Source: Giardia intestinalis
Lineage: Eukaryota
Direction: 5' to 3' (one strand)
Assembly (NCBI GenBank): GCA_000002435.2
Contig: CM018792.1
DNA length: 64,000 nucleotides
In this document: positions 9,650 through 61,800 of the stretch, one piece after another
Numbering within the stretch: position 1 is the first letter of the stretch
How the letters are laid out: each line of letters begins with the position of its first letter
Made by a program: the position numbers and the translations under genes
Notes under the pieces: model-generated
The model's input: only the letters and a program-made list of their open reading frames with translations
Database searches by the model: none
What the model was told of the DNA's origin: nothing

Positions 9650-10348
9650 CTACATTCTATTTCGGGCTGCAAACTGCGCCTCCAGCCTAAGAGCACGCTG
9701 GTACTGTTCAGCCAATTCAACCTTTGCTAGTTCAAGCTCCCGGATTTCTCCTTGCACATCTTGAAGCTTAATGCGCAGGTCCTCGAGAGCCCGCCTTGTC
9801 TTCTCGCCATTATTACTTATGATCTCTCTCCTACGTTCATCTAGCGTAGCAATTTCTCTCTTAAGTCTCTCCTCTTCAGAGACCCACTGTGCTTTGAAGA
9901 ATTGTGCTCTCTGCTCCATTTCTGCCGTTCGTGCTTGTGCGCCTGCAAGCTTTTGGAGAATTAGCGATCTTCGCCTCTCTAACGAGGCTTTTATTCCCTC
10001 AGTTGCCTTATCATATTCGTCCTTAGCCTTCTCGTGAGCCTCTTGGACCGCAGCCATTAGCTTTTCCGTCACGGACGCTTCCTGCTGCGCAGTAGAGATG
10101 GCATCTGCAAGTCTTGTCTGCTTTTCTCGCAGGCGCACCTTCGCCGTATGCTGATCTTTGTCAAGTGCTTCTCTTTCCTTAAGAAGGTCTCCCTCTAACT
10201 TGGCTCGCAAGTCTAGCTCAGCATCTGTCATCTCCCCTTCCCACTGGGCTTGCCGTTCTCGTCTCCACATCTCAAAGCTCCATGTTATGATGTTTTGTAT
10301 AGCTGTGCGCCGCAGGTTAAACTCTTCGATTTCATTGAGATCTGCCAT
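9650..10348 (-). CDS. Coiled-coil protein of 232 aa.
   Basis: Heptad-like charged repeats rich in E/K/R/L/A/Q run throughout. The start codon is an ATG. Confidence 0.6.
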   Translation of the reverse strand: MADLNEIEEFNLRRTAIQNIITWSFEMWRRERQAQWEGEMTDAELDLRAKLEGDLLKEREALDKDQHTAKVRLREKQTRLADAISTAQQEASVTEKLMAAVQEAHEKAKDEYDKATEGIKASLERRRSLILQKLAGAQARTAEMEQRAQFFKAQWVSEEERLKREIATLDERRREIISNNGEKTRRALEDLRIKLQDVQGEIRELELAKVELAEQYQRALRLEAQFAARNRM

Positions 10349-10636
10349 TATAAACGGTTTACGAAACCCTAAATTTTAGATCCACGACCTTCTATTTCAA
10401 TTACTTATCGTAGATCAGGGTCCATTCGCTGGGGAATGCTGTCCGTGACGTGGATAATGTTGGTATTGAAGACCTAGACCAGTGAGCAGCCACGGCTCAC
10501 TATCGCCTGTGGTCATCACCTTGCAGTAAATAGAAAACATACTTCTTGTTTCGAAGTGGTAGACAACCATGTCCTTAGTGCAGAGCCTTAGTTAATCGGG
10601 GTAGTTAAAAGTACATACTTTTACTGTTTACTGTTA

Positions 10637-10683
10637 AAGTAATATTACTTATTTTAACAAGTGTTGTGATCAGTAATATTACT
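10637..10683. repeat. Two copies of the perfect palindrome AGTAATATTACT, about 35 bp apart, in the divergent promoter between the coiled-coil gene and the PUF gene.
   Basis: AAGTAATATTACTT lies at 10637-10650 and AGTAATATTACT at 10672-10683. Both were read directly. The direct repeat tttactgtttactgtt sits next to them. Confidence 0.55.
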
Positions 10684-10792
10684 CCGCTCTACCTTATCAC
10701 GCTCAGGGTAGTAGTCTCTAGCTATGGTGCTGCAACTAATGTTTTGCGTTCTGGGCAAACACTTTTCAATCAAAAAAAAGTGTTCAAAAAAA

Positions 10793-12613
10793 ATGGCGGA
10801 TGGCATAGAAGATCTCCCAGAGATCAAGTTCTCTCGGATGCATCAAGAGGAAGTACCGCCTATTTATCCAGGTGCAGACTACTTGCTTTCTGGCCACCCT
10901 ATTAGTTCTACTCAGTCTGTGCATTTTGTGCCTCCGGGGCTTATTCCTATCAATGGCCAGTCTGGTCTCGATCCCTCGCCTATTCATCAAGCTGTGCCGT
11001 ACTACTCCCCCTCTCACGCACATGCTCTGTCTCCTGTGACGGGCTCGTTGACTAGTAGTACTGCAGCGCTGGCCACTGCACCCCTTGATGGCTCTATGCC
11101 GTCTAGCGTCGGTTTAGACTTCCCGCCTCCAGATATGGCGCATCGCCCTGCTTGCACAGCAACTCCAGTGTCGTCAGTGACCTCTGGCGTGTCTCCTCCA
11201 CACAACCTCTCCTTAAACCCTAACCCGGTCACTGTTCCTATGTCGATACCCGTACAGATGGCACCCGTTGCTTCCTCTCCATCGCTACTATGTGCCATGC
11301 AGTATCCTACTCAGCATCAGTATCCTAGCAGTTTTCCGTCCCTAGCCCATGGTAACCCTGGCCATCCATACTACTTCTCCTGTCCTCCATTCCCCTACTC
11401 GGCAGGCTCCTTGCACAGTCAGCCACCCGTACATTCGCACTCTCCCGTTGCAGGGCCAGTTCCGTTCTACTTTACACCTCATACTGCACCTCAGCTGGCT
11501 TATTCACAACCAGTACTCTCTACTCAGACTTTTGCACCACTTACAGTACCCCCTGTACCCGTCCCCAGTGGTGGACAGAGCTCTTTGACAGCCGTAGCTG
11601 CAACCACAGCGGCAACTACAATAGCTGTTCGTAGGACCGGTGGCAAGGACCGTCCATCTATCTTCCAAGAGCGAGCGAGGGTAAGCGTATCTACGAGACG
11701 GGGTGAACCCCCTGAGGTGTCCTCCAAGGACGCTGCTGAGGCAAAGAAAGCCGAACTGATGCAAGCAGGCCCACGGGCTGCAATAGCATATATGAGGGAA
11801 AATGAAAAGCACATAGAGGTGCTTATGATGTCTCCTTGTGGAAATCATCTGCTCCAGGCCCTCGTTAAGCTTTCTCCAGATGTTGTAGGGTCCATTATAC
11901 TCAACAGTACAACATATAATGAGGACATCTTCAGGATGATTATTAAGGGGAAATGTAGCTGCTGGGTTTTACAGGCTATATTTAGTTGTGGATACGTTCA
12001 CGACAAGACTTTTGAGGATTTACTGATCAAGCATCACGAGGAGATTGCAAAAAGTGAGTATGGAAACTTTGTCCTTCAAAGGGCTATAGAGTGCCCACAG
12101 TTTCAGTTTTTTGATACTTTGTCCGAACATCTCCTGCTAAGCTTTCAATCTATATGCGGCTGTAAGTACGGTTCTCACGTGGCAGAGTGTCTCATCAAGA
12201 CCCTTTCTGCAAGATCTAAGCTTGATGCCGCTGCATACTGGCTGTTCACTCAACCATATTTTTATGGCCTAATAATTGACCAGCACGGATGCTTTGTAGT
12301 AGAGAAGATAGCAGAGGTTGCAACAGGAGAAGTGAAGACATGCTGCTTACGTATTGTTAAGTATGTGATTAGTCTTTTCGCCCCCGGCAGCCAGCCTCAC
12401 GAAGCGGCAGAGCTATTGGGTATTACTCAGCAGATTACCCCTAATCTAGTTGAAAACATCAATAGTATTCTTTATTCTGTTAAATTGAGATGTAGAACCA
12501 TCAATAAATCCTTTGAGTCCATGGTTCCAATGTCTCAAAAAGATCTTCATGCATTTCTTAAGGACCGCAATATTTCGGTAGTAGGTCCTATGGGCTGCTC
12601 GGACGCTATGTAA
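10793..12613 (+). CDS. PUF/Pumilio-family RNA-binding protein with a Pro/Ser-rich N-terminus.
   Basis: The C-terminal half contains tandem Pumilio-like repeats: GNHLLQALVKL, CSCWVLQAIF, GNFVLQRAIE, KYGSHVAECLIK and QHGCFVVEKIAE. The start is taken at MADGIEDL, preceded by caaaaaaaATG. The track ORF starts 69 nt earlier. Confidence 0.6.
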   Translation: MADGIEDLPEIKFSRMHQEEVPPIYPGADYLLSGHPISSTQSVHFVPPGLIPINGQSGLDPSPIHQAVPYYSPSHAHALSPVTGSLTSSTAALATAPLDGSMPSSVGLDFPPPDMAHRPACTATPVSSVTSGVSPPHNLSLNPNPVTVPMSIPVQMAPVASSPSLLCAMQYPTQHQYPSSFPSLAHGNPGHPYYFSCPPFPYSAGSLHSQPPVHSHSPVAGPVPFYFTPHTAPQLAYSQPVLSTQTFAPLTVPPVPVPSGGQSSLTAVAATTAATTIAVRRTGGKDRPSIFQERARVSVSTRRGEPPEVSSKDAAEAKKAELMQAGPRAAIAYMRENEKHIEVLMMSPCGNHLLQALVKLSPDVVGSIILNSTTYNEDIFRMIIKGKCSCWVLQAIFSCGYVHDKTFEDLLIKHHEEIAKSEYGNFVLQRAIECPQFQFFDTLSEHLLLSFQSICGCKYGSHVAECLIKTLSARSKLDAAAYWLFTQPYFYGLIIDQHGCFVVEKIAEVATGEVKTCCLRIVKYVISLFAPGSQPHEAAELLGITQQITPNLVENINSILYSVKLRCRTINKSFESMVPMSQKDLHAFLKDRNISVVGPMGCSDAM

Positions 12614-52172: not shown

Positions 52173-54710
52173 TTAAAAAACCAGAGTTGAAAGTTTATCG
52201 CAAGATGTGATTAGCTGGTCAAAAAGTGCAAACTGACAAGGAATGTTAGTAACAAGAGATGCACGTGACAAGAGCACGTGATTAGATAGGTCTGTGTGCA
52301 CATATATTTTGACCTCTCTTTGATCATCGGATGCATCTGCGATATCTACCAAGTTTAAAGCCTCTTTTGCTTCTTCCAGCGAGATGATCAGAAGTTTCGA
52401 GGTAGTTTCAGCCCTCTTCTTGACCTCTGGTTCCGTTTCCGAAGGGCTCTCAAGGTAATTGATCAGGTCGTTAAAAATGGATGTAAGACACGAGAGCTTG
52501 GACGACTGAGGAATTATAAGCCTCATTGCGTTGCTTCCGTAGTGTTTAGAAGCAAGCCTGTACAGTGCAAGAGGGTAGAGGAGGATAGCTGCGTCAGTCG
52601 GTGATTGAAGGAAAACGTGCACCGGATGTCTTATCACTGAGTTACTGCGCAGCAAGACGTGGAAAATAAACATTAGCAGGAAACAGATAAATATAGGCGG
52701 TGACTGGTTGGATGTCTTTCTTCGCGCCTTTACTTCTGCAATACCCTTGCTTTCCATCAACGGTTTCCTTATTTTTTCATAAAGATGGGTTATCTCTTTT
52801 CCAAGCTTATCTTTTACCTTCGTTGCTTCACTAGAGTCTTGTCGATGCCTAAATCTTGAAAGCGTATTAATCATATCAGTAAATACACTAGTGCATTTGG
52901 AATTGATCCCAAAATAGCTTAGAAGCTCCAGGTAAATAGACATTATTCTCTGAGAATCAATTGCAAGGGGTCTTGTTACCAGTCCAAGCAAGTATCCAAT
53001 CAAATTACTCGAGTCCAAGTAGTCTCCAGGATAATAATTAGCAAGGCCGGGATCAGCCTTCGTCAAATTGATAGATTGCTTCAGAAGGAACGCCGGCTCT
53101 AGTTTAAATGGCACTTCGTTTCTAGAGACTAAACCCATAGTAGCTAACTGCAGAAGTGAGCTACGTAAAAAGAGGTTCACGGTACCCCAGTCCCCTATGT
53201 ACTTGTCCAGTTTTTCCAAGATAGATGACTGATAGGCAGATGCGTGACACTCACCTAAGGACTCCTTCAGCCAAGTTTTAGTGTGCCCAAGGAGAGAAGC
53301 ACCTAATGAGAGGAGGATGCCATGATGTGTTGACATGGTTGATGAGGAAGCATGCTGGTTCGTTGTCAAAGTGCCGCTTTGTGCCTCACAGTATTGACGT
53401 ATGAAAAGACAGGCCATGGTGAAAGTGCAAACATTGTACATCCGGTCAAGGCTCGGTAAGCGGAACGGTTGCTCCAAGACAGGAAGCCGTATGGTGTGTA
53501 CAGCATAGAATTCCAAGAATATAACCTCGACAATACCCCGGACGATCCACGGTATGCTTTCAGTGTATTGTGCCATCAGCCTTCTATCTTCTAAGAATTT
53601 ATAACACGGTTCCAGCGGAACGATGGTAAAGGGAGCAGGGCGAGAACTCACCAATTCATCGGACCGTGGATAGATCTTTTTAAGCGCAGAATAAATGTTT
53701 GCGTGACGCTCGTTACTTATTGAGTCGCAGACTAAAGCTGATAGAAGCCTAATGGTATGGTTAACAAGCACAGCAGATGAAGGAGGGGTTAACAGCGCGT
53801 GGCAAAACTTTGCTTCTCCAGTGCTTCTCACATCAGCGATACCATTGGTCAGCAACCTTACAAATTTTGTCTGACACTGCTCTGGTTGATAACTAGATGC
53901 CGGATTAACATCGTGTAGCAAATCTGAAAAGTACCTAGAATCAGCTAGCAATAGGCTTACGATAATTGGAACCAACTCCAGCACAATGCGAAGTGGAATG
54001 TCTTGCGGCCTGTGGATTCCTGCGCTTTGCAACGAACTTTTGGCATATGATTTGCCTAGATCTAATAGTTTCACAAAGACCGAAGGGACCATTAGCCGCC
54101 CTATCAGACATAGCTCAGCGGACTCTTCATAGTCAACCTTGAAAGATGCTCTAGCATAGGAAAAGGGTGCTCCAACTGACGAGGTGCCATTGTCTGAAGC
54201 TTGCAGATGTAAGCCAGATTGCTCAGCGCTGATCAACTGATTGTTTTCAGCGTTCTTAGATCCTGCCAATAAGTCAATAGGAGCGACGTCAGCACTGTCC
54301 TCTATCAGGTCTAGATCATCATGTAGAGTCTGTTGTATAGAGTTCTGTGAAGAATTGTGATTGGAGGTGGGAGAGGTATCGTCACTATTATCAGTCGCGT
54401 AAGTTGATTCGTTGGATCTCGCGTCTTCTTCGCTAGGTGTCAAATTCACCGGTGTCAATTCGGGAGTTAGTTCTTGGATGATTCCACTTACATGGTAGTA
54501 CTTTGATGGTGCAAGAACTATCGGTACATGGGTTTCGTTATCCTCAAAGCTAATAAAGCTCTTTTCGCATGCATCCTCAATTCGACGAGCTATAAGACTG
54601 GGCTCAGCACGCATCCCGTGTGAAGTAATGTGTCGAATGGGATCACAATTGTTATGAACTCTGTGGATGTCATGCCGTCCCAGCACATACCTAATCATCC
54701 GGGGCTGCAT
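52173..54710 (-). CDS. Hypothetical protein of 845 aa.
   Basis: The ORF is long and starts with ATG. No motif was recognised. Confidence 0.7.
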   Translation of the reverse strand: MQPRMIRYVLGRHDIHRVHNNCDPIRHITSHGMRAEPSLIARRIEDACEKSFISFEDNETHVPIVLAPSKYYHVSGIIQELTPELTPVNLTPSEEDARSNESTYATDNSDDTSPTSNHNSSQNSIQQTLHDDLDLIEDSADVAPIDLLAGSKNAENNQLISAEQSGLHLQASDNGTSSVGAPFSYARASFKVDYEESAELCLIGRLMVPSVFVKLLDLGKSYAKSSLQSAGIHRPQDIPLRIVLELVPIIVSLLLADSRYFSDLLHDVNPASSYQPEQCQTKFVRLLTNGIADVRSTGEAKFCHALLTPPSSAVLVNHTIRLLSALVCDSISNERHANIYSALKKIYPRSDELVSSRPAPFTIVPLEPCYKFLEDRRLMAQYTESIPWIVRGIVEVIFLEFYAVHTIRLPVLEQPFRLPSLDRMYNVCTFTMACLFIRQYCEAQSGTLTTNQHASSSTMSTHHGILLSLGASLLGHTKTWLKESLGECHASAYQSSILEKLDKYIGDWGTVNLFLRSSLLQLATMGLVSRNEVPFKLEPAFLLKQSINLTKADPGLANYYPGDYLDSSNLIGYLLGLVTRPLAIDSQRIMSIYLELLSYFGINSKCTSVFTDMINTLSRFRHRQDSSEATKVKDKLGKEITHLYEKIRKPLMESKGIAEVKARRKTSNQSPPIFICFLLMFIFHVLLRSNSVIRHPVHVFLQSPTDAAILLYPLALYRLASKHYGSNAMRLIIPQSSKLSCLTSIFNDLINYLESPSETEPEVKKRAETTSKLLIISLEEAKEALNLVDIADASDDQREVKIYVHTDLSNHVLLSRASLVTNIPCQFALFDQLITSCDKLSTLVF

Positions 54711-54838
54711 AGTCTGGGTTGGGACAATTAATTTTTATGCTGAGGTAAAGACGAAGCTGCGCAGTAGCGGTAAGGGCTTAGTTTCTGTGTTTCAAGAGTC
54801 TCTCTGACCACGCTAGTGAGAAAAACTAGTTTTTAAAA

Positions 54839-55477
54839 ATGGCGACTATCGATCCGCTGAGCGATGCCGACTTTGATGGATATGTGATACCTACGCATGC
54901 CCTCTTTTTATCCATGGCTCTTCATCATCTGCAGCCCTGGACAGAGATTTTCACGGTGACTGCTCGCATCGTTTTATACTTTGTCATGCCTTTGGCATGG
55001 GTAACGACTCAGTCAAGAAGAACCGCTACGTGGTTGCCGTACTTTATGCTCATGCTGCCCTGGCTGATTAAATGCACGACAGAAAGCATTCCCTCCATAG
55101 ATATCTATTGTAACCTATCCGCTATGATGTCCATCCTACCCACTTACTTATTTGTCTTGCAACGCATCTTTTGCAGAACCAGGTTCTCAACCTGCCGGGA
55201 GAAAATCTGCAGTTGTTTGCTGGTAGTGTGTGGGATTCTTTTAGCGTCTCTTTATGCTATGGAGAAACAACAGGTGCATGCCATCCAGCAATCTGCTCCG
55301 TTTGTGGGCGTGTGGAAGGCTTTTGGCTTAGATGTGGCCAAAAGAGTGGTACGCGATGGAACGTATACATGCACTCAAAAAGCCATCTACATATTCTTTG
55401 CGGTGATTGTCTTCCCCCTTACAAGCCATCTGTACCTAATTCTTACTCTGTTACTACTAAGGATGATATTCACATGA
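54839..55477 (+). CDS. Hypothetical multi-pass membrane protein of 212 aa.
   Basis: There are 4-5 hydrophobic helices. The initiator is tttttaaaaATG. Confidence 0.55.
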   Translation: MATIDPLSDADFDGYVIPTHALFLSMALHHLQPWTEIFTVTARIVLYFVMPLAWVTTQSRRTATWLPYFMLMLPWLIKCTTESIPSIDIYCNLSAMMSILPTYLFVLQRIFCRTRFSTCREKICSCLLVVCGILLASLYAMEKQQVHAIQQSAPFVGVWKAFGLDVAKRVVRDGTYTCTQKAIYIFFAVIVFPLTSHLYLILTLLLLRMIFT

Positions 55478-55522
55478 AGATGTTTACAGATATACTGCAA
55501 CAATCAGTGAAAAGCTCCTTCT

Positions 55523-55672
55523 GATGTATAATCATGGCTTTATCTTATACTGCTCTAGGTGTGATGAAGCACGGGTGCCCGTCAACGGAGGCTGCATTCG
55601 GGACTTTCTCTTCTACAGGGGCGGGTGCTACTCTGTCAACGGCCCCCTCACCCAGGCCATCTGTACGACTAA
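55523..55672 (+). pseudogene. HCMP/VSP-like cysteine-motif fragment of 49 codons. It is below the ORF-track cutoff.
   Basis: A manual frame-3 translation gives MYNHGFILYCSRCDEARVPVNGGCIRDFLFYRGGCYSVNGPLTQAICTTKN*. The CxxC and FLFYxGGCY motifs are the same as in the HCMP at 24435. Confidence 0.45.
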
Positions 55673-56088
55673 GAATTAAATTTACTTCGGAGGCAGAGCC
55701 TTTTGCAATTATCGTCCTGGCAACTGATAACTTCGCCCGCGGACTCGACCTTCCTGCGGTTCGCTCGGTGGTCAACTTCGAGCTTCCAGAGTCGCTGGCC
55801 ACCCTCACCCACCGCGTGGGAAGGTGCGCGCGCGGCCTGAACAGCGGGGTCGCTATCTCAGTGCGGCGGAGCGAGGTCGAGTACAAGTTCGACACGCTGG
55901 CCAACTTCGATCCGAGCCGGGTCGTCTCCATAGACGAGGAGAGCCTCTGCGACTACCGGAGCACAGAGGGGCCGCGGCTGTCCGACTTCTCCGTCGAGGA
56001 CAGCGACGTGCGGGAGATCTCACGGAGGTTCAGCGAGAACATGGACATCTACCTGACCACCCTCTACGACGGGGAGTTCGGGCGCTAG
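55534..56088 (+). pseudogene. C-terminal fragment of a DEAD-box RNA helicase (motifs V-VI) with no helicase N-terminal core. A gene fragment.
   Basis: IIVLATDNFARGLDLPAVRSVVNFELPESLATLTHRVGRCARGLNSGVAISV matches the helicase-C pattern (LV)ATDVAARGLD(IV)..V..VIN(FY)DLP....YVHRIGRTGR.G..G.AI. There are no Walker A/B or DEAD motifs upstream. The region is GC-rich. Confidence 0.55.
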
Positions 56089-56091
56089 GCG

Positions 56092-58005
56092 CTACACGCC
56101 CTTGTGCGGAAGGTTCAGGTTGAGCGGGCTGTGGAAGATGTACTCCGGCGCGCAGAAGTAGTACTGCATGCAGTACCGGCCGAGGAAGAAGATGACGATG
56201 GCCAGGGCCCCCACCAGGACGTAGTTCCACGCGCTGACCTCGAGAGCCTCGCACATCGTGCCTCCGTGCGCGTCGACCGTGTCCAGCCCGTTCACGCACC
56301 GCTTGACCTTGTTGTTGAACGGGGAGGCGCGGACGGCGTCTGCGATGGCGACCTTCTGGGCCTCGTCGGGCGCGGAGAGGAAGAGCGGGTGGACGCCGTC
56401 GCGGTCGGGCCCGTAGAAGCGGGGCATCGTGTACTCGACGGTCAGCTCGTGGCAGAGCGAGTTGGAGCCGCGGCCGATGTAGTAGTAGCCCGAGACGCCC
56501 CAGCCGGTCCCCCACGAGTTGCGCAGGATCCAGACGGGCCGGCCCTTGTAGGCCCCGTAGCCGACGAGCATGACCTGGTGGTTCGTGGTCGCGCGCACGC
56601 ACTTGACGTCGGGGAAGACGCCGCCCTTGTAGAGGTTGAACGTCAGCGCAGAGGCGACGACGGACTCGTAGTCCTTGTCGATCGACGTGTCGACGCCGGA
56701 CTCTGTGTGCATGGCCGCCGCGACCCCGACCCCGCGGGCCAGGACGTTCATGACGTTCCGCTCCCACTCGGCGAACTTCCCCTTGTCCATCTCCTCGATG
56801 ATGAGCCCCGAGGCCGGCACGCCCTCGTTCCGCAGGATCTGGTAGACGCCGAACTTCTTGGGGGTGCCTGAGCCACCATTGACATCATACTCGTATTCAT
56901 CGCTACCTGCAGCCCCAGAATTAGAAGAGCTGCCCTTCTTCTTCATCGGCATGGAGACGAAGGCAGGGTTGAAGTCTCCTATGTTGGTGTCCTGACACTT
57001 AGTACCATCGTCTGGGGCGGCCTTCTCGGGCGTCGCGTACTCCCTGTAGATGCACTCGGACTCCTTCGCGAGCTTGCTCAGCTTGTTAACGAAGTCTGCG
57101 ATGGCGCGGAAGTAGTTCCCCCCGTTGCAGTAGTTCCCGCCGATGAGGTTGTCGAGGAGGAACTGGACGGAGAGGCGCAGGGTGGACGCGCTGTAGGACT
57201 TCCAGTTCTCGGGGATGTCGGTATAGTCCTGTTCGGTGCGATTTGTAACAGTTATTAGTCCTGTGGTGCAGTCAGTACTCTTCTGGTCCCCGTCCTGACT
57301 CGCAGGGGCCGAGCAGTTGCAGAAGTAGTTCGACGGAAAGGGCTGGGGATCGAGGTACTTCCCCCTCGTGTAGAGGTCTGCGTCGACGAGCATCAGGTTC
57401 TCGAGGACCTCGATGGTCGTGAACTCGTAGCAGGAGCCGCACAGGCCCTGGTCCTTCGCGCGGGTCACGAGGCCCACCTCGCGGAGGTCGACGGAGTGGG
57501 GGAGCGTCCGCTGCCTGCCGTTGACGTTCATGTCCCGCACGTCGACGAGGAAGAAGCTGTCCTGCTTCTTGCTCTTATCGTCAGCGTTGGCACTCTGTGA
57601 ATTAGCTTGAGTGTCTCCCTTCAGGTCCGGCCCCAGCTCGTAGGCATCGACGTTGCAGTTGGTGTACTTATTCGATTTGCTATCTCGTGTGCACGTACTC
57701 GTGGCTGCGCTCCACTCGCCACCCCCCAGCGACCGGGGCGGGAGGAGGCCGGCGCGCGGGTGGCGGTCCATCCGGGACGTGATCCCGAAGGTGACGTGCT
57801 CGTGGCCCTCCCGGCGGAGCCTGCGGAGGTGCTCGAGGTGCATGCAGAAGTTCCGCTCCGCCTCCAGCCGGTCCCCGGGCGTGTCGTAGGCCTTCCCGTA
57901 GAGGCCGACGAAGCGCTCGAAGGCATGCTCGCACGCCATATGGATGCTGAACGGGTCCCGCTCGGCCGACGCCGCGCAGAGGAAAGACAAAGTAAGCAGC
58001 AACAT
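56092..58005 (-). CDS. Papain-family (C1) cysteine protease, cathepsin-like. It has a signal peptide, an I29-type propeptide, a large insertion of about 250 aa between the catalytic Cys and His, and a C-terminal transmembrane helix.
   Basis: The signal peptide is MLLLTLSFLCAASA. The propeptide is FERFVGLYGKAYDTPGDRLEAERNF. The catalytic Cys block is DLREVGLVTRAKDQGLCGSCYEFTTIEV. The His block is NHQVMLVGYG, followed by WILRNSWGTGWGVSGYYYI. The C-terminus WNYVLVGALAIVIFFLG is hydrophobic. The initiator is cccaaaaaaggatcggATG. Confidence 0.75.
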   Translation of the reverse strand: MLLLTLSFLCAASAERDPFSIHMACEHAFERFVGLYGKAYDTPGDRLEAERNFCMHLEHLRRLRREGHEHVTFGITSRMDRHPRAGLLPPRSLGGGEWSAATSTCTRDSKSNKYTNCNVDAYELGPDLKGDTQANSQSANADDKSKKQDSFFLVDVRDMNVNGRQRTLPHSVDLREVGLVTRAKDQGLCGSCYEFTTIEVLENLMLVDADLYTRGKYLDPQPFPSNYFCNCSAPASQDGDQKSTDCTTGLITVTNRTEQDYTDIPENWKSYSASTLRLSVQFLLDNLIGGNYCNGGNYFRAIADFVNKLSKLAKESECIYREYATPEKAAPDDGTKCQDTNIGDFNPAFVSMPMKKKGSSSNSGAAGSDEYEYDVNGGSGTPKKFGVYQILRNEGVPASGLIIEEMDKGKFAEWERNVMNVLARGVGVAAAMHTESGVDTSIDKDYESVVASALTFNLYKGGVFPDVKCVRATTNHQVMLVGYGAYKGRPVWILRNSWGTGWGVSGYYYIGRGSNSLCHELTVEYTMPRFYGPDRDGVHPLFLSAPDEAQKVAIADAVRASPFNNKVKRCVNGLDTVDAHGGTMCEALEVSAWNYVLVGALAIVIFFLGRYCMQYYFCAPEYIFHSPLNLNLPHKGV

Positions 58006-58058
58006 CCGATCCTTTTTTGGGCCGCGGATAGGTTAGCCGTGTGCGGGACTTGTACACC

Positions 58059-58542
58059 CTACCGAGTCGCAGACAGGAAGAGGAGCCCGAAGAAGACGGC
58101 CGTGCTCGCCGTCACCCCCGCCACGGCCCCGATGTTCCTCACACGACAGTCACACAGACTCCCGTGGTAGCCCTCGGCACAGACACAGGCGTCCTTGTAG
58201 CACTCCCCGTGTCCTGTGCACACGCTGGCGTACAGACGCCGGTGCCTCATCGTGGAGTGGTCCAGCCGGCAGAGCAGGGAGCTCGTCAGGTTTGCCACGA
58301 AGCCGCTTCCCGACGACGCACTCGGCCGGATAGCACAGCCCTCCAGGGGAGAGTAGTCCAGGCAGGTGCCTGCGGGCTGTCTTGGTTGTCGGCTTCGGCT
58401 GCTGCCCTCGAGAGAACCCTGCGCTGCAACGCACTGCCACTTCCCGAGGATCCCTATGCGGTGCCTACTTCCTCGTGGGTAGAGCGGGCACGGAGGCGCG
58501 GTCCCGCCGCAGGATCCAGTGGATGCTCGGAGACAGGTGACT
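58059..58542 (-). pseudogene. Open frame of 161 codons with no ATG that ends in an EGF-like module plus a transmembrane helix. Likely a remnant of a tenascin/EGF-like membrane protein, or a tiny 63-aa EGF-TM gene from the internal Met.
   Basis: Manual reverse-strand translation gives ...CTGHGECYKDACVCAEGYHGSLCDCRVRNIGAVAGVTASTAVFFGLLFLSATR*. The only in-frame ATG is at MRHRR. The track ORF starts at a GTG. Confidence 0.35.
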
Positions 58543-58898
58543 CAATGACTTCATAGAATAGCGCCCCAGATGCCATGGAGCGAGCAGATGCAGTATGACG
58601 CATTTACTACCGAGACGCCCTGCCCCTGCAGGCGGGCCCAGTGATACAGTGACAGCAATGTACAGGAGTGCACCCAAACAATCATTCCACAAGAGAGGTG
58701 CGTTCTGAGTCTGGCCATCACTCATCCTGTTCCTATCGAAGTCAGGGGGAACCGCACTGTCAGCCGGCCTCCGGTGGGCGTGCTCCTATCTCGTTCTTCT
58801 CCAGTCCAACTGATCAAGGGAGCAAGAGCGGCTGCCTCTCACTGCTCGCGGCAACACACCAGCCTGACAGAAGAGCAGTGGCATACGAACTCCCGCTA

Positions 58899-61800
58899 AT
58901 GTTGGTAGGATTTCTCCTAGTTTGTGCAACAGTGCTGGCCAAGTACAGCGGGAAGACCAGCAGCGAGGCGGTTGCCAACACAAACTGCGCACAAGAGCTG
59001 CAGAATGCGGGCTGCAAGACGTGCGGCCCCAACGACCAGACGTGCCTGGACTGCAAGACTCCTGGCGAGAACGTGCAGCTCGATAAAAGAAGCTGCGGCC
59101 CCACCTGCCCGCAGAACTCCTCCCCCAACCAAAACGTCTGCGAGTGCAACCCGGGATTCAACCTGAACGATAGAAAAGACGCGTGCGAGGCGGTTGCCAA
59201 CACAAACTGCGCACAAGAGCTGCAGAATGCGGGCTGCAAGACGTGCGGCCCCAACGACCAGACGTGCCTGGACTGCAAGACTCCTGGCGAGAACGTGCAG
59301 CTCGATAAAAGAAGCTGCGGCCCCACCTGCCCGCAGAACTCCTCCCCCAACCAAAACGTCTGCGAGTGCAACCCGGGATTCAACCTGAACGATAGAAAAG
59401 ACGCGTGCGAGGCGGTTGCCAACACAAACTGCGCACAAGAGCTGCAGAATGCGGGCTGCAAGACGTGCGGCCCCAACGACCAGACGTGCCTGGACTGCAA
59501 GACTCCTGGCGAGAACGTGCAGCTCGATAAAAGAAGCTGCGGCCCCACCTGCCCGCAGAACTCCTCCCCCAACCAAAACGTCTGCGAGTGCAACCCGGGA
59601 TTCAACCTGAACGATAGAAAAGACGCGTGCGAGGCGGTTGCCAACACAAACTGCGCACAAGAGCTGCAGAATGCGGGCTGCAAGACGTGCGGCCCCAACG
59701 ACCAGACGTGCCTGGACTGCAAGACTCCTGGCGAGAACGTGCAGCTCGATAAAAGAAGCTGCGGCCCCACCTGCCCGCAGAACTCCTCCCCCAACCAAAA
59801 CGTCTGCGAGTGCAACCCGGGATTCAACCTGAACGATAGAAAAGACGCGTGCGAGGCGGTTGCCAACACAAACTGCGCACAAGAGCTGCAGAATGCGGGC
59901 TGCAAGACGTGCGGCCCCAACGACCAGACGTGCCTGGACTGCAAGACTCCTGGCGAGAACGTGCAGCTCGATAAAAGAAGCTGCGGCCCCACCTGCCCGC
60001 AGAACTCCTCCCCCAACCAAAACGTCTGCGAGTGCAACCCGGGATTCAACCTGAACGATAGAAAAGACGCGTGCGAGGCGGTTGCCAACACAAACTGCGC
60101 ACAAGAGCTGCAGAATGCGGGCTGCAAGACGTGCGGCCCCAACGACCAGACGTGCCTGGACTGCAAGACTCCTGGCGAGAACGTGCAGCTCGATAAAAGA
60201 AGCTGCGGCCCCACCTGCCCGCAGAACTCCTCCCCCAACCAAAACGTCTGCGAGTGCAACCCGGGATTCAACCTGAACGATAGAAAAGACGCGTGCGAGG
60301 CGGTTGCCAACACAAACTGCGCACAAGAGCTGCAGAATGCGGGCTGCAAGACGTGCGGCCCCAACGACCAGACGTGCCTGGACTGCAAGACTCCTGGCGA
60401 GAACGTGCAGCTCGATAAAAGAAGCTGCGGCCCCACCTGCCCGCAGAACTCCTCCCCCAACCAAAACGTCTGCGAGTGCAACCCGGGATTCAACCTGAAC
60501 GATAGAAAAGACGCGTGCGAGGCGGTTGCCAACACAAACTGCGCACAAGAGCTGCAGAATGCGGGCTGCAAGACGTGCGGCCCCAACGACCAGACGTGCC
60601 TGGACTGCAAGACTCCTGGCGAGAACGTGCAGCTCGATAAAAGAAGCTGCGGCCCCACCTGCCCGCAGAACTCCTCCCCCAACCAAAACGTCTGCGAGTG
60701 CAACCCGGGATTCAACCTGAACGATAGAAAAGACGCGTGCGAGGCGGTTGCCAACACAAACTGCGCACAAGAGCTGCAGAATGCGGGCTGCAAGACGTGC
60801 GGCCCCAACGACCAGACGTGCCTGGACTGCAAGACTCCTGGCGAGAACGTGCAGCTCGATAAAAGAAGCTGCGGCCCCACCTGCCCGCAGAACTCCTCCC
60901 CCAACCAAAACGTCTGCGAGTGCAACCCGGGATTCAACCTGAACGATAGAAAAGACGCGTGCGAGGCGGTTGCCAACACAAACTGCGCACAAGAGCTGCA
61001 GAATGCGGGCTGCAAGACGTGCGGCCCCAACGACCAGACGTGCCTGGACTGCAAGACTCCTGGCGAGAACGTGCAGCTCGATAAAAGAAGCTGCGGCCCC
61101 ACCTGCCCGCAGAACTCCTCCCCCAACCAAAACGTCTGCGAGTGCAACCCGGGATTCAACCTGAACGATAGAAAAGACGCGTGCGAGGCGGTTGCCAACA
61201 CAAACTGCGCACAAGAGCTGCAGAATGCGGGCTGCAAGACGTGCGGCCCCAACGACCAGACGTGCCTGGACTGCAAGACTCCTGGCGAGAACGTGCAGCT
61301 CGATAAAAGAAGCTGCGGCCCCACCTGCCCGCAGAACTCCTCCCCCAACCAAAACGTCTGCGAGTGCAACCCGGGATTCAACCTGAACGATAGAAAAGAC
61401 GCGTGCGAGGCGGTTGCCAACACAAACTGCGCACAAGAGCTGCAGAATGCGGGCTGCAAGACGTGCGGCCCCAACGACCAGACGTGCCTGGACTGCAAGA
61501 CTCCTGGCGAGAACGTGCAGCTCGATAAAAGAAGCTGCGGCCCCACCTGCCCGCAGAACTCCTCCCCCAACCAAAACGTCTGCGAGTGCAACCCGGGATT
61601 CAACCTGAACGATAGAAAAGACGCGTGCGAGGCGGTTGCCAACACAAACTGCGCACAAGAGCTGCAGAATGCGGGCTGCAAGACGTGCGGCCCCAACGAC
61701 CAGACGTGCCTGGACTGCAAGACTCCTGGCGAGAACGTGCAGCTCGATAAAAGAAGCTGCGGCCCCACCTGCCCGCAGAACTCCTCCCCCAACCAAAACG

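Follow-up and report, generated by a model that had tools for sequence, protein, structure and literature searches.

Helicase and HCMP Group 2 remnants beside a Giardia intestinalis cysteine protease gene probably mark a dispersed, segmentally duplicated block

The stretch of DNA analyzed here (‘the window’) comprises 64,000 nucleotides of Giardia intestinalis WB, contig CM018792.1, and includes the flank genes GL50803_0017593 and GL50803_0011965. GC content is 0.58-0.69 from approximately position 55500 to 62000, versus 0.40-0.47 in the flanks, in keeping with an earlier description of a GC-rich patch at this site; GC-rich islands harboring VSP and HCMP genes are on record (PMC3091692). Several gene fragments lie within the island, and only the protease and the VSP gene appear functional. 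An Rfam search of positions 54500-59500 returned no family.

The papain-family cysteine protease gene occupies positions 56092-58005 on the reverse strand and encodes 637 amino acids (XP_001709702.1 / KAE8303775.1). The original prediction of an intact, membrane-anchored cathepsin is well founded: the product matches Peptidase_C1 (PF00112, E=2e-30), the contexts of the catalytic Cys, His and Asn are legible in the translation (CGSCY, NHQVMLVGYG and RNSWGTGWG, respectively), and the protein carries a signal-like segment at its N-terminus and a hydrophobic anchor at its C-terminus. The open reading frame (ORF) is intact and conserved among assemblage A, E and B-like sequences, and WB has four copies of the gene, at least 90% identical to one another. 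Downstream in the window, ORF, repeat and alignment analyses place a VSP gene of 1029 amino acids with a CRGKA tail on the forward strand (58899-61988); it contains 13.1 perfect copies of a 222-bp repeat, spanning 58963-61871.

On the other side of the protease gene, RefSeq annotates a forward 184-codon ORF (55534-56088) as ‘Helicase conserved C-terminal domain-containing protein’ (XP_037901960.1 / KAE8303774.1; the ORF translation is identical to XP_037901960.1). Pfam and blastn boundaries delimit within it the 3′ fragment of a DEAD-like helicase pseudogene (55690-56088, forward strand), consisting of motifs V and VI and a C-terminal extension. In the frame ending at 56088, motif V reads LATDNFARGLD and motif VI reads HRVGRCARG. 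The Pfam Helicase_C match (E=2.3e-10) is confined to profile positions 67-108 of 110. With the initial two thirds absent, the fragment falls short of a complete RecA2 domain, which has motifs IV, V and VI. A search upstream of the fragment found none of motifs Q, I, Ia, Ib, II and III, which agrees with the earlier reading of motifs V and VI standing without an upstream helicase core.

An intact relative is a DEAD-like ‘Superfamily II DNA and RNA helicase’ of G. muris (TNJ28390.1, 525 amino acids), to which the fragment aligns at residues ∼384-521 with 39% identity; the two share motifs V and VI and a family-specific C-terminal extension, but the window keeps only about one quarter of the protein and none of motifs Q, I, Ia, Ib, II and III. 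Motif I (Walker A, GSGKT), motif Q and motif Ia, absent from the window, are present in G. muris (ASATGSGKT, TPTQHL) and in GS, while motifs II (DEAD) and III (SAT), likewise absent from the window copy, occur in DH L015 and L016 and in P15 P0012. Helicase copies elsewhere form ORFs of 263-393 codons, compared with 127 homologous codons in the window. Motifs Q, I and Ia are missing from the assemblage A and E copies; those of P15 additionally lack motif Ib, and one of these (L003) has an in-frame stop. The GS helicase carries two frameshifts, which may be artifacts of the 454 data, in which case assemblage B would still possess a gene of nearly full length; degenerate, frameshifted traces of the upstream helicase remain in situ in P15 and DH. 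These observations indicate that the diplomonad helicase has been lost in assemblages A and E.

DNA homology between the window fragment and the other copies begins at 55704-55711, and homology at the protein level begins at residue 55-58 of the 184-codon ORF; the ∼55 codons before that point read through a VSP-like relic out of frame. A WB-DH comparison of the N-terminal 57 codons gives sd 4 and nd 8. Most likely, the RefSeq ‘helicase C-terminal domain’ gene is a chimeric pseudogene ORF, even if it is unbroken in WB, DH and further assemblage A isolates.

The relic itself (ORF51; 55524-55679, forward strand) comprises 51 codons plus a stop and corresponds to an old gene model (GL50803_11966, XP_001709701.1). 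The original prediction had placed a 49-codon ORF at 55523-55672; the ORF is real but longer, and the two motifs attributed to it, a CxxC (CSRC) and FLFYRGGCY, are both present. Its likeness to HCMP/VSP proteins depends on the method: a Pfam search gave no family at E≤1, and a word-indexed search of 5.8 billion proteins, which depended on shared 5-residue words, matched ORF51 only to itself. Local alignments to VSP/HCMP proteins, in contrast, score 62-68, whereas 500 composition-preserving shuffles of ORF51 score 37.5±4.9 with a maximum of 56, none reaching 68. Since the real scores exceed those of all 500 shuffles, the order of the CxxC and GGCY modules resembles that of VSP/HCMP proteins beyond mere cysteine content, and on the basis of this shuffle-controlled alignment the segment looks like a derivative of a VSP/HCMP gene. 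In DH it contains an in-frame stop and GRCY in place of GGCY; that is, the reading frame is not conserved.

The third fragment lies between the protease and VSP genes. A reverse-strand frame at 58059-58542 had been described as open for 161 codons, ATG-less, and ending in an EGF-like module and a transmembrane (TM) helix. The open frame and its terminal features hold, with weak Pfam EGF matches (E about 2e-4 to 1e-3) followed by a hydrophobic tail, but the frame (58541-58062) is 160 codons long and includes one in-frame ATG (58250-58248). The portion at 58062-58404 (reverse strand) is the 5′-truncated, internally deleted 3′ remnant of an HCMP Group 2 (HCMP2) gene. Its last 55-60 residues, which include an EGF-like module (CTGHGECYKDACVCAEGYHG) and the TM helix, are nearly identical to those of XP_001704954.1 / KAE8302843.1 (1374 amino acids), and three more collinear patches match the same protein. 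At the nucleotide level, four collinear patches from within its last ∼1.1 kb are all that remains of the WB HCMP2 gene, which they match with 85-94% identity; this match (contigs L006-L009) runs on into a second protease copy. BLASTP of the remnant against P0048 gives E=2e-34. Relative to the full-length protein, with its N-terminal signal, EGF array and C-terminal TM, the remnant is without ∼1,200 N-terminal residues, has internal deletions, and reaches a premature stop seven codons early. The WB and DH versions differ by a frame change and a 21-nt indel.

The parental genes that the earlier reading proposed to look for are therefore identified as the diplomonad DEAD-like helicase and HCMP Group 2, and support is found for its view of the pieces as truncated remnants of non-functional appearance, lying in a GC-rich island that is associated with a VSP and prone to recombination. 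Its suggestion that they might encode small non-canonical products finds no support, given the ORF51 stop in DH and the differing frames of the EGF remnant in WB and DH.

Comparison by blastn with DH L016, L015 and L004 and with P15 L001-L003 defines the boundaries of a duplicated block, or ‘duplicon’, that spans at least 55704-59592 and takes in the helicase 3′ end, the protease, the HCMP2 remnant and the 5′ part of the VSP gene. Window positions 55704-58226 align to every copy with 88-95% identity. The longest alignment (55711-59592, to DH L016, 91.3% identity) extends through the spacer and VSP upstream region (58405-58898) and the first ∼700 nt of the VSP gene, and this DH copy has the EGF/TM remnant, the same internal HCMP2 deletions and the VSP junction in common with the window. 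The other copies start ∼1,020 nt further into the helicase than the window copy does. The block thus qualifies as a segmental duplication in the sense of a sequence above 1 kb that recurs, about 90% or more identical, in different genomic contexts; the GC island coincides with it.

Four protease copies were found in WB, distributed over three chromosomes (one adjoins HCMP2, another lies near a Notch-like gene), a count and contexts that rest on protein accessions and contig sizes. DH also has four (L004, L015, L016 and ESU35928), and P15 has at least three (L001-L003). The arrangement seen in the window is found in synteny in DH (assemblage A2), and P15 has equivalent copies of the duplicon; the fragments are thus not isolate-specific. 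A tblastx comparison of the left flank of the window copy with the three P15 copies showed it to be shared by none of them, so that no positional orthologue emerged from P15 on that side. Draft assemblies join the flanks differently (Notch...HCMP2 in DH, ank...HCMP2 in P15), so that at least one flank assignment is uncertain.

The source of the block emerges from gene order in other genomes. In G. muris (L014), an intact helicase (525 amino acids) is followed by an EGF protein (1118 amino acids), AspRS and an aminotransferase; the helicase lies tail-to-tail with the EGF protein, the HCMP2 orthologue (38% identical over ∼1190 amino acids, TM tail included), with no protease between them. In GS (L013) and P15 (L001), the order is helicase, Peptidase_C1, HCMP2 (1374-1376 amino acids), AspRS and aminotransferase. 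These arrangements show an ancestral locus in which a tail-to-tail pair of helicase and HCMP2 orthologue preceded AspRS and the aminotransferase; they also show that in G. intestinalis a papain-family protease sits between helicase and HCMP2.

We consider it very probable that this part of the window represents a copy of a segmental duplication with dispersed members, centered on the cysteine-protease gene. The ancestral helicase/HCMP2 locus would have received the protease gene between its two genes in G. intestinalis, and the segment running from the already decaying helicase, via the protease, to the 3′ end of HCMP2 would then have been copied elsewhere. One such copy may have become fused to a VSP gene, and the larger unit (helicase remnant, protease, HCMP2 remnant and VSP start) would have undergone a second duplication; this order of events, from parent to VSP-joined copy to re-duplication, is read from shared breakpoints only. 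The window copy probably shed a further ∼1 kb of helicase at its left edge, which now adjoins the VSP/HCMP-like relic along with GL50803_17593 and GL50803_11965, the unique genes of the flank. The helicase and EGF/TM pieces would accordingly be passenger portions of the neighbors of the protease, cut by duplication and deletion breakpoints.

Copies of the block also appear to exchange sequence. The WB window protease differs at 13 residues from the WB chromosome 5 copy, compared with 47 from its syntenic DH orthologue, and such greater similarity of within-strain copies than of positional orthologues argues for gene conversion, which may also keep the fragments close to their paralogues. Divergence between WB and DH is uneven, with up to 12% per 200 nt in the block versus 0-3% in the flank. 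Third codon positions in the block show W-to-S changes of 0.22-0.37 and S-to-W changes of 0.05-0.11, whereas in flanking single-copy genes both are about 0.25-0.28; the GC bias is present at third codon positions and absent at positions 1+2 of the helicase remnant, which counts against GC-biased conversion. Conversion and GC-favoring third-position substitution would accompany the GC-rich island, and a link between conversion and GC richness is plausible. Within-strain similarity of paralogues and mosaic divergence are also features of concerted evolution in multi-copy surface and virulence families of parasites; here, in contrast to surface-family conversion, exchange would include the protease and its dead neighbors rather than antigen genes alone. 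A further proposal, to which we give little credence, is that selection, or conversion from a copy under constraint, preserves the helicase remnants of assemblages A and E as RecA2-only polypeptides, and that biased conversion may also maintain the protease/VSP duplicon as a GC-rich cassette; third codon positions of the helicase remnants do still evolve unlike first and second positions.

The original prediction portrayed the locus as a graveyard of illegitimately recombined segments, in which the three pieces would be unrelated fragments accumulated independently around the VSP locus. Part of this picture stands, as the left junction does join the VSP/HCMP-like relic to the helicase tail; left breakpoints also vary among copies, and VSP regions are known synteny breakpoints (PMC3091692). 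In the ancestral locus of GS, P15 and DH, however, the protease lies between the helicase and HCMP2 tails with order and orientation unchanged, G. muris keeps the helicase-HCMP2 order minus the protease, and remnants built in the same way turn up in other copies. The helicase tail and the EGF/TM remnant are hence collinear ancestral neighbors of the protease rather than unrelated segments, and independent accumulation of all three is very unlikely. It is very unlikely, too, that the helicase remnant or its longer 263-393-codon versions represent a functional truncated protein (RecA2 plus C-terminal extension) and the 184-amino-acid ORF a real gene. The persistence of that ORF in assemblage A isolates would fit such a protein, as would an NG86 omega of 0.25-0.42 in the helicase frame, versus about 0.8-1.0 in shifted frames, and W-to-S changes that are 4-5 times commoner at third positions than at positions 1+2. 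Yet ORF51, despite its stop codon in DH, gives an even lower omega (0.11), which implies that omega is biased in GC3-rich relics; we therefore rejected dN/dS alone as proof of function. G/C sites change equally at all codon positions (0.104 vs. 0.117, p=0.63), and the ratio of rates at positions 1+2 to position 3 is 0.62, compared with 0.13-0.25 in neighboring real genes. Structure likewise argues against function: the window keeps the last ∼40 of 110 Helicase_C positions and no ATP-binding motifs, the N-terminus is the out-of-frame VSP relic, and lesions are copy-specific (the motif Ib deletion of P15, the L003 stop, the GS frameshifts in 454 data).

Giardia trans-splices a few split genes, and the helicase begins abruptly in mid-domain, which in theory leaves room for its other half to be encoded at another site. 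A cis- or trans-spliced gene with the fragments as its exons is nonetheless extremely unlikely. The intron 3′ motif CTRACNCNCAG occurs once in the 64 kb (at 57295; 1.2 expected) and nowhere upstream of the fragment, left ends of the other copies share no conserved motif, and the frameshifted upstream-helicase traces lie in situ in P15 and DH. With the search for the motif beside the fragments negative, the notion of a spliced multi-exon gene was dropped.

A copy of a duplicated block, the preferred reading, accords with what is known of this genome, 6.9% of which is duplicated, with multi-gene blocks of up to 20 kb that often include members of multi-gene families (Xu et al. 2020, PMC7000408). 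The present block resembles those segmental duplications in being multi-copy, at least 3.9 kb long, and 88-96% identical, and in carrying a VSP within an island that is GC-rich and lacks synteny. Cysteine-rich pseudogenes are abundant near VSPs (10.1101/2022.03.07.483299), and the HCMP2 remnant and ORF51 resemble the pseudo-VSP and pCRMP sequences described (10.1101/2022.03.07.483299; PMC7000408) in being Cys-rich, without a signal peptide, and situated beside a VSP; the HCMP2 remnant differs in its origin, which is not a VSP array: it marks where a copied non-VSP locus was cut, and its deleted form is common to a second copy. Literature searches, including those by gene and protein identifiers, found no description of the duplicon, its source locus or its truncated passenger genes.

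Edges of duplicated blocks are ordinary in the variable GC-rich regions of Giardia, and the present case is a worked example that leaves the general understanding unchanged. It corrects the RefSeq helicase C-terminal annotation, names the parental genes of the fragments, and offers a reconstruction of how one variable island may have been built up, from the ancestral helicase/HCMP2 locus through protease insertion and dispersed duplication to VSP joining. It also indicates concerted evolution of a four-copy cysteine-protease family, which diverges strongly between A1 and A2 isolates that are otherwise nearly identical, a divergence relevant to the use of these proteases as markers or virulence candidates.

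GC content rises in the window from ~0.45 to 0.58-0.69 across roughly 55500-62000, bearing out the GC-rich patch of the original prediction, in which three pieces of gene debris surround a protease. The cysteine protease is indeed intact (56092-58005, minus strand; Pfam Peptidase_C1, E=2e-30), and the helicase tail is present as described, including motifs V and VI (Pfam Helicase_C, E=2.3e-10), within a 184-codon helicase-annotated open reading frame (ORF; 55534-56088, plus strand) identical to XP_037901960.1/KAE8303774.1, which is carried by the 2.76 Mb chromosome of isolate WB (assemblage A1). The small frame with CSRC and FLFYRGGCY motifs exists, with coordinates slightly off: it occupies 55524-55679 (plus strand; 51 codons, hereafter ORF51). 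The reverse frame is open for 160 codons (58541-58062) and ends, as predicted, in an EGF-like module and hydrophobic tail; it is not ATG-less, having a single in-frame ATG at 58250-58248. GL50803_0017593 and GL50803_0011965 flank the block on the left. A VSP gene begins at 58899 (ATG; 1029 amino acids; CRGKA tail), and nearly its whole ectodomain consists of a 222-bp (74-aa) unit repeated 13.1 times with 100% identity (58963-61871).

Relatives of the window helicase ORF led to corresponding loci in DH (assemblage A2), P15 (assemblage E), GS (assemblage B) and G. muris. A P15 locus (ACVC01000133) contains, in order, a helicase remnant (391-aa ORF), a Peptidase_C1 protein on the opposite strand (634 aa), High cysteine membrane protein Group 2 (HCMP2; 1374 aa), AspRS and an aminotransferase, and the GS locus has the same order. 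In G. muris an intact 525-aa helicase (TNJ28390.1) lies tail-to-tail with an 1118-aa EGF protein, followed by AspRS and the aminotransferase, with no protease between helicase and EGF gene. This EGF protein, 38% identical to HCMP2 over ~1190 residues including the transmembrane tail, is its orthologue. The shared gene order indicates that helicase and HCMP2 are ancestral neighbours, between which the protease lies in G. intestinalis. Helicase and protease stops face each other tail-to-tail, 3 nt apart in the window (56086-56094) and 4 nt apart in P15, and the G. muris helicase and EGF genes overlap by 4 nt (11575-11578 of the locus); given the window gap and the G. muris overlap, 3' processing signals must sit within the partner gene's coding sequence.

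The EGF/transmembrane fragment is an HCMP2 pseudogene remnant. It matches WB HCMP2 (XP_001704954.1; BLASTP E=2e-34), and at 58062-58404 (minus strand) comprises four collinear patches of that gene's last ~1.1 kb at 85-94% nucleotide identity. It has a premature stop, and it differs from DH in reading frame and by a 21-nt indel.

The block is a dispersed duplicon. WB has four proteases at least 90% identical to one another: the window's own KAE8303775, a second one on that chromosome (KAE8303844), KAE8302842 adjoining HCMP2 (KAE8302843) on the 1.97 Mb chromosome, and KAE8305602 near a Notch-like gene on the 4.02 Mb chromosome; DH has four copies and P15 at least three. DNA homology to all other copies runs from 55704-55711 through the protease up to 58226. 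Against one DH copy (AHGT01000029) it reaches 59592 (91.3% identity), taking in ~700 nt of the VSP as well as the HCMP2 remnant and spacer. The VSP start belongs to the duplicon, and since the same internally deleted remnant occurs in both the window and this DH copy, the remnant-VSP junction is older than their split. That DH copy is arranged UTP20-ank-helicase-protease-HCMP2 remnant-VSP and another (AHGT01000004) HECT-Notch-helicase-protease-HCMP2-AspRS; in P15 the orders are UTP20-ank-helicase-protease-HCMP2-AspRS (ACVC01000133) and HECT-Notch-helicase-protease to the contig end (ACVC01000211). Either one of the draft assemblies has been misjoined through the repeat, or duplicons recombined between lineages.

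ORF51 is confined to the window and the syntenic DH copy, where it contains a stop codon. It has no Pfam family and no database relative, and scores 68 against VSP/HCMP modules (37.5 +/- 4.9 for its own shuffles). Its best match within the window is a separate 820-codon Cys-rich frame (24390-26849, plus strand; 24 CxxC motifs; C-terminal end WFICRGKRRYYR) that looks like an HCMP-type gene. The 2007 gene model for ORF51, GL50803_11966, survives under its old accession only; in the 184-aa model that has replaced it, the first ~55 codons are this relic read out of frame. A Logan contig (1411 nt; public short-read assembly) encodes a 271-aa ORF matching 54839-55680, which links GL50803_11965 to the relic across the intergenic region, with several indels relative to the window. 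It may stem from a variant strain or from read-through transcription.

Contigs of WB-like isolates in short-read assemblies end at the block edges; such breaks are expected of a repeat. DH shows the same arrangement independently, which excludes an assembly artefact. A spliced gene is not supported: no Giardia intron 3' motif was found close to the fragments or where the other copies begin on the left. No Rfam family was found in 54500-59500. The "graveyard" of separate pieces originally envisaged is not upheld, because the helicase and EGF/transmembrane fragments belong together, being neighbours in the P15, GS and G. muris loci.

The helicase copies show progressive, copy-specific decay of a gene intact in G. 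muris. The window retains only codons aligned to G. muris residues ~384-521, and its Helicase_C match spans only positions 67-108 of the 110-position profile. The remaining copies in assemblages A and E start ~1,020 nt earlier, keeping motifs Ib to VI without Q, I and Ia; P15 copies also lack Ib, and one has an in-frame stop. GS has a nearly complete helicase with two frameshifts, possibly 454 sequencing errors; it runs from G. muris residue 34 across three frames (locus positions 10001-11500), including GSGKT, DEAD and SAT. The GS protein (ESU44482.1) is deposited as 'Cysteine protease', apparently a mislabel borrowed from the neighbouring gene. In a B-like metagenome version (P0233) one frameshift is read through, but an internal deletion removes SAT.

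Selective constraint was assessed from NG86 omega, which is 0.25-0.42 in the helicase frame only, a sign of function weakened by the value of 0.11 for ORF51, dead in DH. With GS as outgroup, helicase substitution rates at G/C sites are equal (0.104 at codon positions 1+2, 0.117 at position 3; p=0.63), the difference being confined to A/T sites (0.082 vs 0.367). Overall, dividing the rate at positions 1+2 by that at position 3 gives 0.62 for the helicase, whereas the protease gives 0.45, HCMP2 0.25 and AspRS 0.13. We read this as a strong relaxation of constraint, with an unexplained codon-position signal left over. Longer copies elsewhere may function; the window's 127-codon piece cannot yield even a full RecA2 domain.

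Protease copies within a strain are closer than positional orthologues: the window protease differs at 13 residues from the WB chr5 copy and at 47 from the syntenic DH copy, and P15 proteases differ at 18-34 residues among themselves and 52-68 from assemblage A copies. WB-DH divergence per 200 nt is 0-3% in the flank and patchy, up to 12%, in the block, where the non-syntenic DH copy (AHGT01000029) differs from the window at 108 nucleotides and the syntenic one at 148. Gene conversion between copies leaves this pattern. Cysteine proteases had already been listed, in a published survey, among the 'orthologues' that diverge unusually strongly within assemblage A (PMC4570179). Among the window copy, WB P0236, P0239 and P0241 and three DH copies (L004, L015, L016), otherwise near-identical genes contain short hypervariable patches (~56900-57050, 57200-57350, 57500-57800). 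Each copy carries one or the other of two versions, in a shuffled distribution (e.g. TSTCTRDSKS vs ADACNWTNKT), which points to mosaic gene conversion and perhaps to diversifying loops.

At third positions in the block, W-to-S changes well exceed S-to-W changes; in flanking single-copy genes the two are about equal. This agrees with a GC-favouring process maintaining the island, but the helicase remnant shows no such process at its positions 1+2, and GC-biased conversion is therefore something we infer. Duplicon GC3 is ~0.86-0.89, and A-E third-position divergence is 0.09-0.15 in duplicon genes and 0.26-0.27 in adjacent single-copy HCMP2 and AspRS (L015, L001, L013).

A search of the literature and of gene and protein identifiers found no published description of this duplicon or its origin. 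GC-rich VSP/HCMP islands are known at synteny breaks (PMC3091692), duplications make up 6.9% of the WB genome (PMC7000408), and Cys-rich pseudogenes are plentiful beside VSPs (10.1101/2022.03.07.483299). The block is a real but ordinary feature of the Giardia genome, a well-resolved example of known processes.
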